64,000 nucleotides of DNA from Escherichia coli (GCF_048403405.1 NZ_CP183129.1); one strand, 5' to 3'. Numbered from the stretch's first letter, positions 19 through 53,291 are shown. Program-made: numbers and translations. The notes: generated by a model from the sequence alone, not told the origin.

Positions 19-27
19 TCTCTCTAC

Positions 28-52
28 GCCCTCACCCGTGCAGGGTGAGGGC
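28..52. terminator. GC-rich hairpin between convergent aroP and ampE, likely bidirectional terminator
   Basis: Inverted repeat gccctcaccc-gtgca-gggtgagggc directly between two convergent stop codons. Confidence 0.5.
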
Positions 53-60
53 GATAATCT

Positions 61-8553: not shown

Positions 8554-8748
8554 GTCTGATGCGACGCTGGCCTGATAAGACGCGGGCAGCGTCGCATCAG
8601 GCATCGTGTGCAAATGTCGGATGCGATGTGAACGCCTTATCCGACCTACAAGACCTTACATATCAACGTATTAAAATTATAGATACTGATAAGACGCGCC
8701 AGCGTCGCATCGGACATCTTGTGCAAATGTTGGATGCGGCATAAACAC
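8554..8748. repeat. BIME/REP cluster (several palindromic units) between yacG and mutT
   Basis: Repeated gcctgatgcgacgc / gcgtcgcatcaggc / ggatgcg...cttatccgacctac palindromic-unit motifs. Confidence 0.8.
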
Positions 8749-9161: not shown

Positions 9162-9189
9162 AAAAAAGGCGCAGAATCCTGCGCCTTTT
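9162..9189 (-). terminator. Rho-independent terminator downstream of secA
   Basis: Stem aaaggcgcag/ctgcgccttt followed by a T-run on the minus strand. Confidence 0.6.
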
Positions 9190-9206
9190 ACTTCAACTGT
9201 TAGCTT

Positions 9207-11912
9207 TTATTGCAGGCGACCATGGCACTGCTTGTATTTTTTACCAGAACCGCACGGGCAAGGATCGTTACGTCCTACTTTACGTTCACCGGTTTGCGCC
9301 GCCAGTGCAGCAGCGGCTGCAGAGTCGTCATCCTGATGGCTAAGCTGCTGCATCTGCGCTAAACGCTCGGCTTCCATACGACGCTGTTGTTCCAGCTCCT
9401 CAACCTCTTCAGGCATACGTACCTGAACTTTGCTCAGCGTACTGATAACTTCATATTTCAACGACTCCAGCATCGCTGCAAACATGGAGAACGATTCACG
9501 TTTGTATTCCTGCTTCGGATCTTTCTGTGCATAGCCACGCAGGTGGATACCCTGACGCAGATAGTCCATCGCTGCCAGGTGCTCTTTCCACAGGGAGTCA
9601 AGCGTTTGCAGCATGACGCCTTTCTCGAAGTGACGCATCATCTCTGCACCAACCACTTCTTCTTTACGCTGATACACTTCGATGGACTGCGCCAGAATGC
9701 GCTCACGCAGCGTCTCTTCATGCAGTTCTGGTTCTTTATCCAGCCACTCGGCAATTGGCAAATCAAGGTCGAAATCGTTCTTCAGACGTTCCTGCAGCCC
9801 CGGAATATCCCACATTTCTTCCAGCGACTGTGGTGGAATGTAGGCATCAATGGTCGCTTTGAACACATCTTCACGAATGCTGTTGATGGTTTCGCTCACA
9901 TCGCTGACATCCAGCAGTTCGTTACGCTGGGAGTAAATGGCGCGACGCTGATCGTTAGCCACGTCATCATATTCCAGCAGTTGCTTACGAATGTCGAAGT
10001 TACGACTTTCAACTTTACGCTGGGCGTTGGCAATCGCTTTAGTCACCCACGGGTGTTCAATGGCTTCGCCTGGCTTCATACCCAGTTTACGCATCATGCC
10101 GGATACTCGGTCGGAAGCAAAAATACGCATCAGCGCATCTTCCATCGACAGGTAGAAACGGGAAGAACCAGCATCCCCCTGACGACCAGAGCGACCGCGC
10201 AACTGGTTATCGATACGACGGGATTCGTGACGCTCGGTACCGATGATATGCAGGCCACCTGCTGCCAGTACCGCATCGTGACGTACCTGCCAGTCGGCTT
10301 TAATTTTTTCAATTTGCTCTGCGGTCGGATTTTCCAGCGCGGCAACTTCTGCCTGCCAGCTACCACCGAGCACAATATCTGTACCACGACCCGCCATGTT
10401 GGTCGCGATAGTCACCGCAGCCGGATAACCTGCCTGAGCAACAATCGCCGCTTCGTTGGCGTGGAATTTGGCGTTCAGGACGTTGTGCTTAATACCGGCT
10501 TTGGTCAGTTCGTTTGACACCAGCTCAGATTTTTCGATGGAGATAGTACCCACCAGCACCGGCTGGCCTTTCGCAGTACGTTCTTTGATATCTTCAATGA
10601 TCGCCTGAATTTTTTCTGCTTCAGTCATGTAGACCAGGTCCGGCAGATCTTTACGAATCATTGGACGGTTGGTCGGAACAACGACGGTATCCAGCTTGTA
10701 GATGGAGCTGAATTCGAAAGCTTCGGTATCAGCAGTACCGGTCATCCCCGCCAGTTTTTCATACAGACGGAAGTAGTTCTGGAAGGTGATCGAAGCCAGC
10801 GTTTGGTTTTCGTTCTGGATCTGCACACCTTCTTTCGCTTCCACAGCCTGGTGCAGACCATCGGACCAGCGACGGCCCTGCATGGTACGACCGGTGTGTT
10901 CGTCAACGATGATAACTTCACCATCTTTAACGATGTAGTCGACGTCACGGGTAAACAGCGCATGAGCGCGCAGCGCCGCCGTTACGTGGTGCATCAGCAT
11001 GATGTTTGCCGGAGAGTACAGAGACTCCCCTTCATCCATGATGCCTTCTTTCACCAGCAGTTCTTCAATCAGGACCAGACCACGTTCGGTCAGGTTCACC
11101 TGGCGAGATTTTTCGTCCACCGAGAAGTGGCCTTCGCCCTGGAAGGTTTCGGAGTCTTCTTTTTCCTGACGGATCAGGTGCGGAATAATTTTATTCACGC
11201 GTTTATACATTTCCGAGCTGTCTTCTGCCGGGCCGGAAATGATCAGCGGTGTACGCGCTTCATCGATCAGGATGGAGTCCACTTCGTCCACCAGCGCATA
11301 GTGCAGTTTACGCTGTACACGTTCTTCAGGGCTGAACGCCATGTTATCGCGCAGGTAGTCAAAGCCGTATTCGTTGTTCGTACCGTAAGTGATGTCAGCT
11401 GCGTAAGCTTCACGCTTCGCCGGTGCTGGCATGCCCGGCAGGTTGATACCGACAGTCAGGCCAAGGAATTCAAACAGCGGACGGTTGTTTTCGGCGTCAC
11501 GTTGCGCCAGGTAGTCGTTGACGGTAACAACGTGTACGCCCTTACCGGTTAATGCGTTCAGGTAAGCAGGCAGCGTTGCGGTCAGGGTTTTACCTTCACC
11601 GGTACGCATTTCGGCGATGCAGCGTTCGTTAAGAACCATACCGCCGAGTAACTGAACGTCGAAGTGACGCATACCAAAGACGCGCTTACTTGCCTCACGC
11701 ACCACGGCGAAAGCTTCCGGGATCAGATTTTCCAGCACTTCGCCTTTTTCCAGACGTGCACGAAACTCTGCGGTTTTCCCTTTCAGTTCTTCGTCGGAGA
11801 GTTTTTCCATCTCCGGTTCCATGGCATTGATGATGTTAACCACTTTGCGCATCCGGCGCAGGGTGCGATCGTTACGACTACCGAAAACTTTAGTTAATAA
11901 TTTGATTAGCAT
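9207..11912 (-). CDS. secA: Preprotein translocase ATPase SecA (901 aa)
   Basis: Full-length ORF, C-terminal zinc site [14 protein letters not shown]. Confidence 0.98.
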
Positions 11913-13734: not shown

Positions 13735-14886
13735 TTAATCAGCTTGCTTACGCAGGAATGCTGGGATATCCAGATAATCCGGCTCTTTCGCAGTTTGCGG
13801 CGCATTGTCATTCACAACTTTAGCAACCGGCTTCTGCTCCTGGGTCAGCGGAGCCATCCCGTGCTGCTGGTAGCGATCCATCACTGGCTGCTGAACCTGC
13901 TTATTGGTCACCAGAGTGATTTCAGGACGTTTGTCCATGCCGATACCTGTCGCAACAACAGTTACACGCAGCTCGTCATTCATATCCGGGTCAAGAGAAG
14001 TACCGATAACCACAGTCGCGTTGTCGGAAGCAAATGCACGGATGGTGTTACCTACCGTTTCGAACTCATCCAGACGCAGGTCGAAGCCCGCTGTGATGTT
14101 AACCAGCACGCCGCGCGCGCCAGACAGGTCGATATCTTCAAGCAGCGGAGAAGAGATAGCCATTTCAGCAGCTTCTTCCGCACGGTCTTCACCGCTCGCC
14201 ACGCCAGAACCCATCATTGCGTAGCCCATTTCAGACATTACGGTGCGTACGTCTGCAAAGTCCACGTTCATCAAACCCGGACGAGTAATCAGTTCGGCGA
14301 TACCTTGCACAGCGCCTTTGAGTACATCGTTCGCTGCGCCAAACGCATCCAGCAGGGAGATACCGCGGCCCAGAACTTTCAGCAGTTTGTCGTTCGGGAT
14401 AGTGATCAGAGAGTCCACATGTTTGGACAGTTCAGTGATCCCCTGCTCCGCGAATGCCATACGCTTCTTGCCTTCAAAGTTGAAAGGCTTAGTGACGACA
14501 GCAACGGTCAGGATACCCAAATCTTTTGCCACTTCAGCGACGACTGGAGCTGCGCCTGTACCGGTACCACCACCCATACCCGCAGCAATAAAGACCATGT
14601 CTGCACCTTCCAGCGCCGCACGCAGTGCATCGCGATCCTCATCAGCCGCATTACGGCCAACTTCTGGATTAGCGCCAGCGCCCAGTCCTTTGGTGATACC
14701 GCTACCGATTTGAATCGTCTGTCCAACCGCTGTTTTACGCAGCGCTTGTGCATCGGTATTTACCGCGAAGAATTCAACACCTTCAATGCGCTCGCGCACC
14801 ATGTGTTCAACAGCATTACCGCCGCCGCCGCCGACGCCGATGACTTTAATCACCGCGTCATTGGTAAGTTCCATTGGTTCAAACAT
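13735..14886 (-). CDS. ftsZ: Cell division GTPase FtsZ (383 aa)
   Basis: Tubulin signature GGGTGTG; full length. Confidence 0.98.
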
Positions 14887-14946
14887 AGTTTCTCTCCGAT
14901 TTGTGCCTGTCGCCTGAGGCCGTAATCATCGTCGGCCTCATAAAAA

Positions 14947-16209
14947 TTAAAACTCTTTTCGCAGCCAACTATTGAGTCGCTTGATCCACGAGCCAACTGA
15001 TGCTGTAACACGTTTTTCTACTTCAGCTTCACCGTTAAGATGTGACTCTTTTCCATAGTGAAGCAATCCCACCGCCGTCGAATAATACGGCTCCTGAGCA
15101 TAATCCGTTAAACCGGTAATGTTCAGCGGCGCGCCGATACGCACTTGCGTATGAAACACGCGCTGAGCACAGGCTGCAAGACCTTCAATCTGCGCTGCGC
15201 CACCAGTTAATACAATGCCTGCCGCCAGGTGATGTTTAACCCCTTGTTGGCGAAGCTTTTCCTGCAACTGCAATATCTCTTCGTTGACCAGGTTGAGCAG
15301 CTCGGTATAGCGCGGCTCGATCACCTCTGCCAGGGTCTGACGTTGCAGACTCCGCGGCGGACGACCGCCTACGCTCGGCACTTCCACGCTCTCATCTTTT
15401 CCAACGATGGAACCCAGCGCACAACCGTGGCGAACTTTAATCGCTTCGGCGTCGCTTGGCGGCGTGCCAAAGGCGTAAGCGATATCACTGGTCACGACAT
15501 TGCCAGCATAAGGAATTACCTTAGTGTGGCGCAATGCCCCACCGGTATAAACGGCGATATCCATTGTACCACCACCGATATCGACGACGCAGACACCCAG
15601 TTCACGTTCATCTTCCGTCAATACCGAATAACTTGATGCCAGTCCAGCAAATATCAGTTGGTCAACTTTCAGCCCACAACGTTCAACCGCTTTGACGATG
15701 TTTTTCGCCATATCGTTGTGACATGTGATCAGGTGCACTTTTGCCTGCATCCGCACGCCCGAAAGTCCTACCGGATTCTTGATCCCTTCCTGATAGTCAA
15801 TCGCATACTCTTGCGGGATCACATGCAGCACACGGTGTTCATCGCGCACACGCACCGATTTCGCGGTATGGACGACGTTTTCCACATCTTCTTGCGTTAC
15901 TTCTTCTTCAGAAATAGGCACCATACCAATTTCATTCTGGCAGCTGATGTGCTTACCAGAAAGCGCCAGATATACCGAAGAGATCTGACAATCTGCCATC
16001 AATTCTGCCTGGTCAATGGCGCGTTGTACGCACTTGACCACGGATTCGAGGTCGTTCACCCCGCCTTTATCCATACCACGCGACGGGCAGCTGCCCACGC
16101 CAATGATATTGACCATACCGTCGGGCAGAACTTCCCCTACTAAAGCGGCAACCTTCGCGGTACCAATCTCCAGTCCTACTACCAGTTTTCTGTCCGTCGC
16201 CTTGATCAT
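14947..16209 (-). CDS. ftsA: Cell division protein FtsA (420 aa)
   Basis: Actin-like ATPase; order ftsQ-ftsA-ftsZ. Confidence 0.98.
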
Positions 16210-47761: not shown

Positions 47762-47775
47762 AAGCACACGGACAG

Positions 47776-47814
47776 CCCCCTCGCCCCTCCGGGGAGAGGG
47801 TTAGGGTGAGGGGA
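47776..47814. repeat. GC-rich intergenic repeat (boxC-like), copy 1
   Basis: cccctcgcccctccggggagagggttagggtgagggga; near-identical copy at 53225..53265. Confidence 0.5.
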
Positions 47815-47842
47815 ACAAACCAGCGCCGATGCAAACTATCCC

Positions 47843-48607
47843 CTAAACCCCAACCACTTTACGCAAAATATCGATATACACCGGCATCAACGGGTGGCGA
47901 ATTAACACCACCAGCGCCACCACGCCGATGGCAGAAATCAACGGCGTCAACCACAACAAACGACCGTGCGACAAATAATGACTTAAACGATCGGTTGCTT
48001 TGCCGCTGCGCCATAACCGCCAGCACAGCCAGCCCCCAACCCACAAAAATACCGCCGTCGCCAGCAGCAACCATTTAAACTCACCACTCTGCATCCCGGC
48101 AGGAATATCGATCGCCGCGCCCGCCAGAATCCCTGGCAGGAAGTAAAACGGCGGCCACAGCAGGCAGCCTATAATATTCGGCGTAATGAATTTTGCCACC
48201 GGGAGATCCAGCATTCCCGCCACCATTGGCACCAGCGGACGCGTCGGGCCAACAAAGCGACCGACCAGAATGGTGAACATGCTGTGTTGATGCAACGCAT
48301 GTTCAGTTTTATCGAGTAATGCTTTGTTTTTCTTCAGAAATGACCAGCGATGCAATGGCTTTTTAAAACGCCAGCCCAGCCAGAAAGAGATCCAGTCGCC
48401 CAGCAGGCAACCGACGATCCCTGCCAGCCAGGCGTGCCAGAAACTTAACTCGCCACTGCCAATCAGCGCCCCCAGTCCCGCCATTAGCACCGTACCGGGT
48501 AAAATCAAACCGACCAGCGCCAGCGACTCCAGAAAGGCCACCAACACCACCGCCATCAATGAATACACGGTGGATTGGGTAATAAAGTGTTCCAGCAATG
48601 CTTGCAT
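47843..48607 (-). CDS. yabI: DedA-family inner membrane protein YabI (254 aa)
   Basis: ORF track; conserved position between thiQ and araC. Confidence 0.93.
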   Translation of the reverse strand: MQALLEHFITQSTVYSLMAVVLVAFLESLALVGLILPGTVLMAGLGALIGSGELSFWHAWLAGIVGCLLGDWISFWLGWRFKKPLHRWSFLKKNKALLDKTEHALHQHSMFTILVGRFVGPTRPLVPMVAGMLDLPVAKFITPNIIGCLLWPPFYFLPGILAGAAIDIPAGMQSGEFKWLLLATAVFLWVGGWLCWRLWRSGKATDRLSHYLSHGRLLWLTPLISAIGVVALVVLIRHPLMPVYIDILRKVVGV

Positions 48608-51620: not shown

Positions 51621-53123
51621 ATGACGATTTTTGATAATTATGAAGTGTGGTTTGTAATTGGCAGCCAGCATCTGTATGGCCCGGAAACCCTGCGTCAGGT
51701 CACCCAACATGCCGAGCACGTCGTTAATGCGCTGAATACGGAAGCGAAACTGCCCTGCAAACTGGTGCTGAAACCGCTGGGCACCACGCCGGATGAAATC
51801 ACCGCTATTTGCCGTGACGCGAATTACGACGATCGTTGCGCCGGCCTGGTAGTGTGGCTACACACTTTCTCCCCGGCCAAAATGTGGATCAACGGCCTGA
51901 CCATGCTCAACAAACCGTTGCTGCAATTCCACACCCAGTTCAACGCGGCGCTGCCGTGGGATAGCATCGATATGGACTTTATGAACCTGAACCAGACTGC
52001 ACATGGCGGTCGCGAGTTCGGCTTCATTGGCGCGCGTATGCGTCAGCAACATGCCGTGGTTACCGGTCACTGGCAGGATAAACAAGCCCATGAGCGTATC
52101 GGCTCCTGGATGCGTCAGGCGGTATCTAAACAGGATACCCGTCATCTGAAAGTCTGCCGTTTTGGCGATAACATGCGTGAAGTAGCGGTCACCGATGGTG
52201 ATAAAGTTGCCGCACAGATCAAGTTCGGTTTCTCCGTCAATACCTGGGCGGTTGGCGATCTGGTGCAGGTGGTGAACTCCATCAGCGATGGCGATGTTAA
52301 CGCGCTGGTCGATGAGTATGAAAGCAGCTACACCATGACGCCTGCCACACAAATCCACGGCGAAAAACGCCAGAACGTGCTGGAAGCGGCGCGTATTGAG
52401 CTGGGGATGAAGCGTTTCCTGGAACAAGGTGGCTTCCACGCGTTCACCACCACCTTTGAAGATTTGCACGGTCTGAAACAGCTTCCTGGTCTGGCCGTAC
52501 AGCGTCTGATGCAGCAGGGTTACGGCTTTGCGGGCGAAGGCGACTGGAAAACTGCCGCCCTGCTTCGCATCATGAAGGTGATGTCAACCGGTCTGCAGGG
52601 CGGCACCTCCTTTATGGAGGACTACACCTACCACTTCGAGAAAGGTAATGACCTGGTGCTCGGCTCCCATATGCTGGAAGTCTGTCCGTCGATCGCTGTG
52701 GAAGAGAAACCGATCCTCGACGTTCAGCACCTCGGTATTGGCGGTAAAGATGATCCAGCGCGCCTGATCTTCAATACCCAAACCGGTCCAGCGATTGTCG
52801 CCAGCTTGATTGATCTCGGCGATCGTTATCGTCTGCTGGTTAACTGCATCGACACGGTGAAAACACCGCACTCCCTGCCGAAACTGCCGGTGGCGAATGC
52901 GCTGTGGAAAGCGCAACCGGATCTGCCAACTGCTTCCGAAGCGTGGATCCTCGCTGGTGGCGCGCACCATACCGTCTTCAGCCATGCGCTGAACCTCAAC
53001 GATATGCGCCAGTTCGCCGAGATGCACGACATTGAAATCACGGTGATTGATAACGACACCCGCCTGCCAGCGTTTAAAGACGCGCTGCGCTGGAACGAAG
53101 TGTATTACGGATTTCGTCGCTAA
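51621..53123 (+). CDS. araA: L-arabinose isomerase AraA (500 aa)
   Basis: ORF track; full length. Confidence 0.98.
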
Positions 53124-53146
53124 GTAGCTGCATCAGGTGTGTAACG

Positions 53147-53227
53147 CCTGATGCGACGCTGGCGCGTCTTATCAGGCCTACACGCTGTGATTTTGTAGGC
53201 CGGATAAGCAAAGCGCATCCGGCATTG
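53147..53227. repeat. BIME/REP palindromic units between araA and araD
   Basis: gcctgatgcgacgctggcgcgtcttatcaggcctac and gtaggccggataagcaaagcgcatccggc. Confidence 0.8.
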
Positions 53228-53265
53228 TTTTCCCCCTCGCCCCTTTGGGGAGAGGGCCGGGGTGA
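53225..53265. repeat. GC-rich intergenic repeat (boxC-like), copy 2
   Basis: ccccctcgcccctttggggagagggccggggtgaggggaaa; paralogous to 47776..47814. Confidence 0.5.
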
Positions 53266-53291
53266 GGGGAAACGACCTCTCAGGAGTCAAC

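Follow-up and report, generated by a model that had tools for sequence, protein, structure and literature searches.

The window, that is, the whole stretch of 64,000 nt of DNA that was analysed, is a segment of the Escherichia coli chromosome (GCF_048403405.1, NZ_CP183129.1) and corresponds to the reverse complement of roughly 56–120 kb of the K-12 map; it comes from a strain other than K-12, and TUM14771 showed 100% identity to it in every compared stretch. The intergenic gaps considered here are bounded by the following genes.

1–18: last codons of aroP; ampE lies opposite, on the minus strand, from 62
Up to 47761, plus strand: thiQ
47843–48607, minus strand: yabI
51621–53123, plus strand: araA
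From 53292 (ATG), plus strand: araD

Elsewhere in the window, the expected Rfam families were found (SgrS at 41377–41603, the leucine leader at 36469–36618 and the TPP riboswitch at 44380–44479). Three further families scored above the gathering score on the minus strand: naRNA4, which is derived from REP325 (8569–8646), STnc40 (9162–9231) and PssrA (14878–14967), the last of which is described as a plasmid-encoded Shigella sRNA and is here chromosomal.

The original prediction held that two near-identical repeats of about 40 bp, resembling boxC, lie after thiQ and between araA and araD. The pattern CCCTCGCCCCTNNGGGGAGAGGGNNRGGGTGAGGGG was indeed matched exactly twice in the window, both times on the plus strand (47778–47813 and 53234–53269), and in none of 100 dinucleotide-preserving shuffles. 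When aligned, the two copies have in common a block of 40 nt, CCCCCTCGCCCCT[CC/TT]GGGGAGAGGG[TTA/CCG]GGGTGAGGGGAA, which spans 47776–47815 and 53232–53271 and in which 35 of the 40 positions are identical. Both copies are intergenic, between annotated genes. The interval first assigned to copy 1 (47776–47814) was correct, whereas that of copy 2 (53225–53265) was placed about 6 nt too far left and lost the last G block. Likewise, the extent of about 40 bp applies to the shared block, but the mobile or allelic units are longer, at ~70 and 55 nt, and include subtype-specific flanks. The two units and their parts are as follows.

47762–47832, plus strand: whole allele-specific unit of copy 1, a type A BoxC element with its flanks (~70 nt), in the convergent gap between thiQ (plus) and yabI (minus)
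47778–47813, plus strand: core of copy 1, an exact pattern match, identical to TMECO no. 23, type 'A mm' (PMC4666352, Table 1)
47778–47787: block 1 of copy 1, CCCTCGCCCC, followed by the loop TCC
47791–47800: block 2 of copy 1, GGGGAGAGGG, followed by the loop TTA
47804–47813: block 3 of copy 1, GGGTGAGGGG
53227–53281, plus strand: whole allele-specific unit of copy 2, a type B BoxC element (55 nt), flanked by GTTTTCC on the left and by AAACGACCTCTC on the right
53234–53269, plus strand: core of copy 2, an exact pattern match, identical to TMECO no. 3, type 'B mm'
53234–53243: block 1 of copy 2, followed by the loop TTT
53247–53256: block 2 of copy 2, followed by the loop CCG
53260–53269: block 3 of copy 2
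53146–53223: REP/BIME unit beside copy 2 and outside BoxC, with two inverted REPs (53146–53181 and 53195–53223)

The motif was first named BoxC, then rediscovered as the 'potential intrastrand triplex' (PIT) and finally renamed TMECO, with the consensus CCCTCNCCC N3–6 GGGNGAGGG N3 GGGNGAGGG (Holder et al. 2015, NAR, PMC4666352). In that study, 23 copies were catalogued in K-12 MG1655 (Table 1), 63 loci were listed over 56 strains and the motif was reported from >260 genomes, with no bias in orientation or neighbouring-gene class and no tie to flanking-gene function. BoxC also appears among the known E. coli families of Petrillo et al. (2008), where it is entered with 32 copies and a literature length of 56 bp; a length of 50 is given as well (PMC2267715). 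Both window cores fit the three-block consensus exactly, and their second loops, TTA in copy 1 and CCG in copy 2, are those of type A and type B, respectively. Judged by sequence, both are thus members of the BoxC/PIT/TMECO family, copy 1 of type A and copy 2 of type B: they have the same three blocks, consensus, A/B loops, 'mm' G in block 1, flanks and dispersal. Compared with the K-12 catalogue, the window copies show no difference in sequence; both loci are unoccupied in K-12, and the copies are therefore missing from the catalogue. In Rfam, the BoxC copies matched nothing at the gathering threshold, and at E≤1 gave chance-level matches to eukaryotic families only. The family was already known, so that the finding is correct but ordinary; the BoxC/PIT literature is said to include the work of Bergler in 1992, of Bachellier in 1996 and of Hoyne and Maher in 2000 and 2002.

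All 23 copies of Table 1 were re-found at their published coordinates in NC_000913.3 (18 K-12 loci). The genome-wide search for the motif that had been proposed with the original prediction was carried out with the 40-mer; 5425 of 5426 complete E. coli genomes contain it, at 2–32 places each (median 18), so that it is by no means confined to the two sites of the window; the listed matches had no annotated feature beneath them. Aligning the K-12 copies together with their flanks separated two subfamilies, A and B. Type A copies have a left flank of ~17 nt with the consensus aaaGCgCACGGACgGTC and a right flank that begins with GAACAGgCCaGCAc, and the flanks of copy 1 (AAGCACACGGACAGCC on the left and GAACAAACCAGCGCC on the right) fit the flank consensus of 15 K-12 type A copies. 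The left flank of copy 2, GTTTTCC, fits GTTTTCY, which is common to K-12 type B copies. Five K-12 loci consist of an inverted B/A pair, with spacers of 18–29 nt in four of them and of 59 nt in one, and the spacer sequence of these pairs recurs as the right flank of type A copies that stand alone.

Neither window site holds BoxC in K-12, where the entries of Table 1 begin at 164 kb. At thiQ–yabI, K-12, ST131, O157 and strain E32 carry REP/BIME sequence in place of the ~70-nt unit, with both sides conserved. The BoxC allele was found there in 492 of 5426 complete genomes (~9%), and no empty allele was found in a spread sample of 40 genomes. At araA–araD, the copy 2 segment stands in for a BIME unit or for the 3-nt CGA, as judged against alleles with one, two and three REP/BIME units (L127, L126 and MG1655, respectively), and the window allele, in which one REP/BIME unit is followed by the 55-nt BoxC unit, is present in 1568 of 5426 genomes (~29%). 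The claim that REP units adjoin copy 2 was borne out by a match to the REP consensus GCCKGATGCGRCG at 53146–53158, by sub-threshold naRNA4/REP325 matches at 53126–53178 and by the inverted REP that can be read at 53195–53223; the two BoxC units themselves contain no match to this consensus.

Among E. coli strains, araA–araD holds differing numbers of REP/BIME units (one, two, three, and a longer allele in XL10-Gold), which makes this slot a hot spot by itself, independently of BoxC. In several places the type B left flank GTTTTCY directly follows an unrelated hairpin, which creates a hairpin plus U-run at the junction; the hairpins in question are the REP at 53195–53223 in the window and, in K-12, the ppiC terminator and the fepB leader hairpin, and K-12 Term-seq 3′ ends fall just before BoxC at the latter two (3959499, minus strand, at ppiC; 624680, minus strand, at the fepB leader). 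On its other side, the copy 2 unit abuts the araD Shine–Dalgarno sequence AGGAG (53282–53286), the core ending 12 nt upstream of it. The G blocks of both copies hold Shine–Dalgarno-like GGAG/GAGG and the C block holds anti-Shine–Dalgarno-like CCUC, and any influence of these letters on ribosome binding is a matter of speculation only.

Two further BoxC loci of K-12 were compared. At adk–hemH, about half of the E. coli genomes (O157 type) carry an unrelated, shorter segment instead of the BoxC-containing one (K-12 type), which is a clear case of replacement of a whole intergenic cassette; each of the two alleles has a different terminator-like hairpin. At zntA–tusA, three REPs are inserted beside BoxC in some strains. 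Querying the joined flanks of thiQ–yabI, araA–araD, zntA–tusA and adk–hemH revealed neither a clean empty site nor a target-site duplication, and the alleles at these four loci are either replacements or REP arrays next to BoxC. The window copies are thus strain-variable intergenic cassettes, at sites where other strains hold REP/BIME. Since their boundaries are those of replacements rather than of clean insertions, the copies most likely arrived by recombinational exchange of a variant intergenic segment.

Such replacements bear on the possibility that BoxC is a selfish, non-autonomous mobile element, REPIN- or MITE-like, which is copied in trans, serves no host function and has left the window copies as leftover singletons. 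Near-identical copies at unrelated loci, presence that differs between strains, and the inverted B/A pairs of K-12, whose spacer is retained as the right flank of single type A copies, all favour this possibility, but the lack of a clean empty site or target-site duplication at the four loci, where the alternatives are replacements, does not. REPINs are reportedly mobilised by RAYT transposases, a concept attributed to Bertels and Rainey in 2011. K-12 BoxC resembles them in its inverted B/A pairs with short spacers and in singletons that look like half-pairs, whereas both window copies are singletons and the sampled copies have no RAYT-like gene beside them: when the 1.07 Mb that surround 166 copies in four other genomes were searched by tblastn with E. 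coli RayT, no homologue was obtained (best E = 3.1).

Beyond E. coli, a cross-species scan of one genome per species listed matches from four genomes, and these establish presence across phyla rather than a taxonomic census. The three-block motif, with lineage-specific loops and flanks, occurs in at least four genomes, namely a Methylomirabilota MAG, Mitsuaria chitosanitabida, a Contendobacter MAG and one further MAG, and this cross-lineage presence agrees with the report by Holder et al. of >260 genomes. In Mitsuaria chitosanitabida, the ~1 Mb that was sampled contains at least 145 copies, with a nearly fixed GCTTGC-like first loop and, in most copies, the 3′ flank TCTTCGGGCT; 27 inverted neighbour pairs of constant order are found among them, and the expansion is far above that in E. 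coli. Large expansion in distant lineages, together with inverted pairs in Mitsuaria (27) and in the Methylomirabilota MAG (4), again argues for a mobile element. However, the families of open reading frames that recur near BoxC copies, obtained by clustering of neighbouring ORFs, look like ordinary paralogues when judged from their sequences alone, and the motif is near-absent from phages (3 of 50,697 records). Its plasmid matches are mostly to megaplasmids or chromids of Klebsiella, Rhizobium, Sinorhizobium and Azospirillum or to chromosomes filed as plasmids. Overall, we consider the selfish-element explanation rather unlikely. As an aside, the E. coli BoxC 40-mer is matched twice, at 97%, in each of the Campylobacter phage records MG065686.1 and MG065691.1, an unexpected find for such a host that may stem from contamination or misassembly.

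As to structure, block 1 has two options for Watson–Crick pairing, either with block 3 (10 pairs, including one G–U) or with block 2 (with one G–A mismatch). The predicted fold of BoxC was not more stable than those of composition-matched shuffles (z from 0.0 to −1.4), and among 16 type A copies none of 13 pairs showed compensatory change. Across 191 copies from five lineages, the variable (N) position of block 1 was only ever T or G, that of block 2 was A in 187 copies and that of block 3 was T or A; the T/G variation in block 1 was compensated in neither block 2 nor block 3.

The same three blocks underlie a proposal of action at the level of DNA, by which the unwound G-rich strand folds into an intrastrand purine-motif triplex and stalls replication or provokes recombination, so that the locus becomes unstable (Holder et al. 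2015). Read directly, block 3 can be laid antiparallel on block 2 with eight G·G, one A·A and one T·A contacts, all of them allowed as purine-motif triplets, and both window copies satisfy this rule. Type A and type B 'mm' oligonucleotides with cores identical to those of the window formed intrastrand triplexes in vitro, as detected by CD and NMR, and polymerase stops occurred in primer extension; in vivo DMS footprinting of copy no. 3, however, showed no protection of the triplex guanines (PMC4666352). The near-constant A of block 2 and the restriction of block 3 to T or A, which are the third-strand bases allowed opposite an A:T pair, are also in keeping with a triplex, but such constancy can equally be explained by descent from a few master copies. 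Similarly, both window loci and adk–hemH differ between strains, yet this variability may be confounded with the site, as the REP number at araA–araD varies even without BoxC, and the presence or absence of the element was itself scored as variability. The motif has the likeness of H-DNA-like purine triplexes in its pyrimidine, purine and G/T-rich third blocks of the right polarity, which would give G·G:C, A·A:T and T·A:T. Classical H-DNA, by contrast, depends on supercoiling and a long mirror repeat, whereas the BoxC triplex arises from one strand and was seen in vitro. We regard triplex-driven instability as an unlikely account of the window copies.

A further possibility is that the repeat spreads a site recognised by some DNA- or RNA-binding protein, such as a nucleoid protein or a regulator, in line with blocks and N positions that are unusually constant across lineages. 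REP/BIME elements bind IHF, gyrase and Pol I. No partner, however, is named in the BoxC/TMECO literature examined, no tie to flanking-gene function was reported (PMC4666352) and the present analyses point to none; this explanation is, in our judgement, very improbable.

Related letters recur at the left end of the window, where a hairpin at 28..52 had been described as akin to the repeat.

27–53, plus strand: stem-loop at the 3′ end of aroP, in the convergent aroP/ampE gap and outside the BoxC family, with an 11-bp stem (27–37 paired with 43–53) and a 5-nt loop

The hairpin is present and shares the 9-mers CCCTCACCC and GGGTGAGGG with BoxC, the latter occurring four times in the window against an expectation of 0.23. 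Membership of the family was nevertheless rejected, as the hairpin consists of two blocks rather than three, carries at the N position of block 1 an A that was seen in none of the 191 BoxC copies, and occurs at a single place per genome, always the same locus, in 5423 of 5426 genomes; it is also kept in K-12 save for one loop base. It folds far better than chance (z of −6.0 on the plus strand and −5.1 on the minus strand), and in comparison with such values of −5 to −6 an exceptional stability of the BoxC hairpin, at 0.0 to −1.4, was discarded. The K-12 Term-seq primary 3′ end of aroP (120140, minus strand) lies 4 nt past the stem, at about window position 56. This sequence is thus a locus-specific aroP 3′ stem-loop. 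It has no U tract, the ampE stop codon of the opposite strand lies only ~5 nt away from its 3′ end, and the hairpin almost fills a convergent gap of 42 nt by itself.

Each BoxC copy of the window likewise comes after a stop codon and is able to fold into a GC-rich hairpin, as would be the case if the two were gene-specific intrinsic terminators of thiQ and araA that are alike by chance. No T-run follows either copy on the plus strand, though, and a scan with the terminator consensus was empty there; on the minus strand near copy 1, one weak terminator-like site of five pairs was found, which is no more than shuffles yield. Copy 2, moreover, is internal to the araBAD operon, with 12 nt separating it from the ribosome-binding site of araD, the family occupies a median of 18 places per genome and K-12 has neither copy. 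A family member that does coincide with an RNA 3′ end in K-12, at lldD, has an intrinsic terminator score of 1.32, under the cut-off of 3. We thus find it extremely improbable that the copies are gene-specific terminators, which were dismissed on the missing T-run or U tract, the intra-operon position and the genome-wide copies. In K-12, the BoxC copy at adk is preceded by the stop codon and followed by a separate hairpin with its own T-run, and PIT elements showed neither promoter nor terminator activity in an earlier study (reference 41), as reported by PMC4666352.

The original prediction of boxC-type dispersed repeats rather than gene-specific terminators is accordingly upheld by the consensus, the identity with catalogued copies, the genome-wide spread and the missing plus-strand T-run. 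As a statement about RNA ends it stands in part: the hallmarks of an intrinsic terminator are absent, but dispersal as such leaves a role at RNA 3′ ends open, and other K-12 copies coincide with mapped ends. These ends were taken from the Term-seq tables for MG1655 of Adams et al. 2021 (PMC7815308), whose rows span −50 to +10 around each 3′ end; the coordinates of copy no. 17 were used to confirm this register for the row of lldD. The ends found past BoxC hairpins are listed below.

3781065, plus strand: 3′ end at copy no. 17, 4 nt past the hairpin (primary end of lldD)
3959467, minus strand: 3′ end at copy no. 20, 4 nt past block 2
847200, minus strand: 3′ end at a degenerate copy, 4 nt past block 2
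4231270, minus strand: 3′ end at a degenerate copy, 3 nt past the hairpin
632098, plus strand: 3′ end at a degenerate copy, 10 nt past the hairpin

A check of RNA-seq for termination or processing at the two window sites, which had also been proposed, could thus be made in part, as K-12 lacks both copies and the evidence comes from its other copies, where the ends are 3–4 nt (four copies) or 10 nt (one copy) past the hairpin. Such ends were found at only 2 of the 23 canonical K-12 copies, in addition to the three degenerate ones, and none was found at a canonical type A copy in G-rich orientation (GAGAGGGTTAGGG, 0 occurrences). The lldD end lies within a significant Rho termination region (Rho score 1.49).

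Rho-dependent transcripts end just past stable stem-loops without U tracts, which block PNPase and RNase II and of which REP elements form part (Dar and Sorek 2018, PMC6061677). Four of the K-12 BoxC copies (the fifth having its end at 10 nt) and the aroP hairpin resemble these protective 3′ stem-loops in being U-less with a 3′ end a few nucleotides downstream, although that class is defined by function rather than sequence. On this model, the C block and a G block of a transcribed copy would form a GC-rich hairpin of 9–10 bp with no U tract, which would halt 3′-to-5′ exonucleases after termination further downstream and in this way fix and protect the 3′ end of the upstream message, the very job attributed to the REP elements that BoxC replaces. 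The messages affected would be those of thiQ and, from the opposite strand, yabI, as well as the araBA portion of the araBAD transcript. That the main effect in cis is such a REP-like hairpin, fixing and protecting RNA 3′ ends after downstream and probably Rho-dependent termination, is suggested by the other copies of the family; we propose it tentatively, with a confidence a little short of even. Counting against it are the unremarkable fold stability, the lack of covariation and, as given in PMC4666352, the absence of bias in orientation or neighbouring-gene class and of promoter or terminator activity. As a whole, the explanation that best fits the data, and one we consider quite probable, is that the two sequences are BoxC members that exist as strain-variable cassettes and may act in cis as REP-like hairpins protecting RNA 3′ ends.

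Under this explanation, the parallel with REP/BIME is close: both are dispersed, intergenic, GC-rich imperfect palindromes without a U tract that lie after genes or between cistrons, both occupy the same two slots in different strains and both kinds are associated with RNA 3′ ends. They differ in that their sequences are unrelated, REP having two arms and BoxC three blocks, and in that REP has RayT as its partner whereas BoxC has no known one. A more far-reaching conjecture, which we hold to be doubtful, is that BoxC and REP/BIME are interchangeable cassettes that compete for 3′-end slots, both being kept for the U-less protective hairpins they provide after Rho-dependent termination; the BoxC family would then span Enterobacteria, Burkholderiales, Methylomirabilota and, according to the literature, Cyanobacteria, and its near-invariant blocks would point to a trans-acting copying factor.

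For annotation, the repeats of the window can be labelled BoxC type A and BoxC type B, and 27–53 can be labelled as the aroP 3′ stem-loop; for the window itself, the repeats are of little further weight. For the family, the occurrence of BoxC and REP/BIME in the same slots at these loci is a partial confounder of the local instability that has been linked to BoxC in the literature, and the Term-seq ends just past K-12 BoxC hairpins offer a testable role at the level of RNA.
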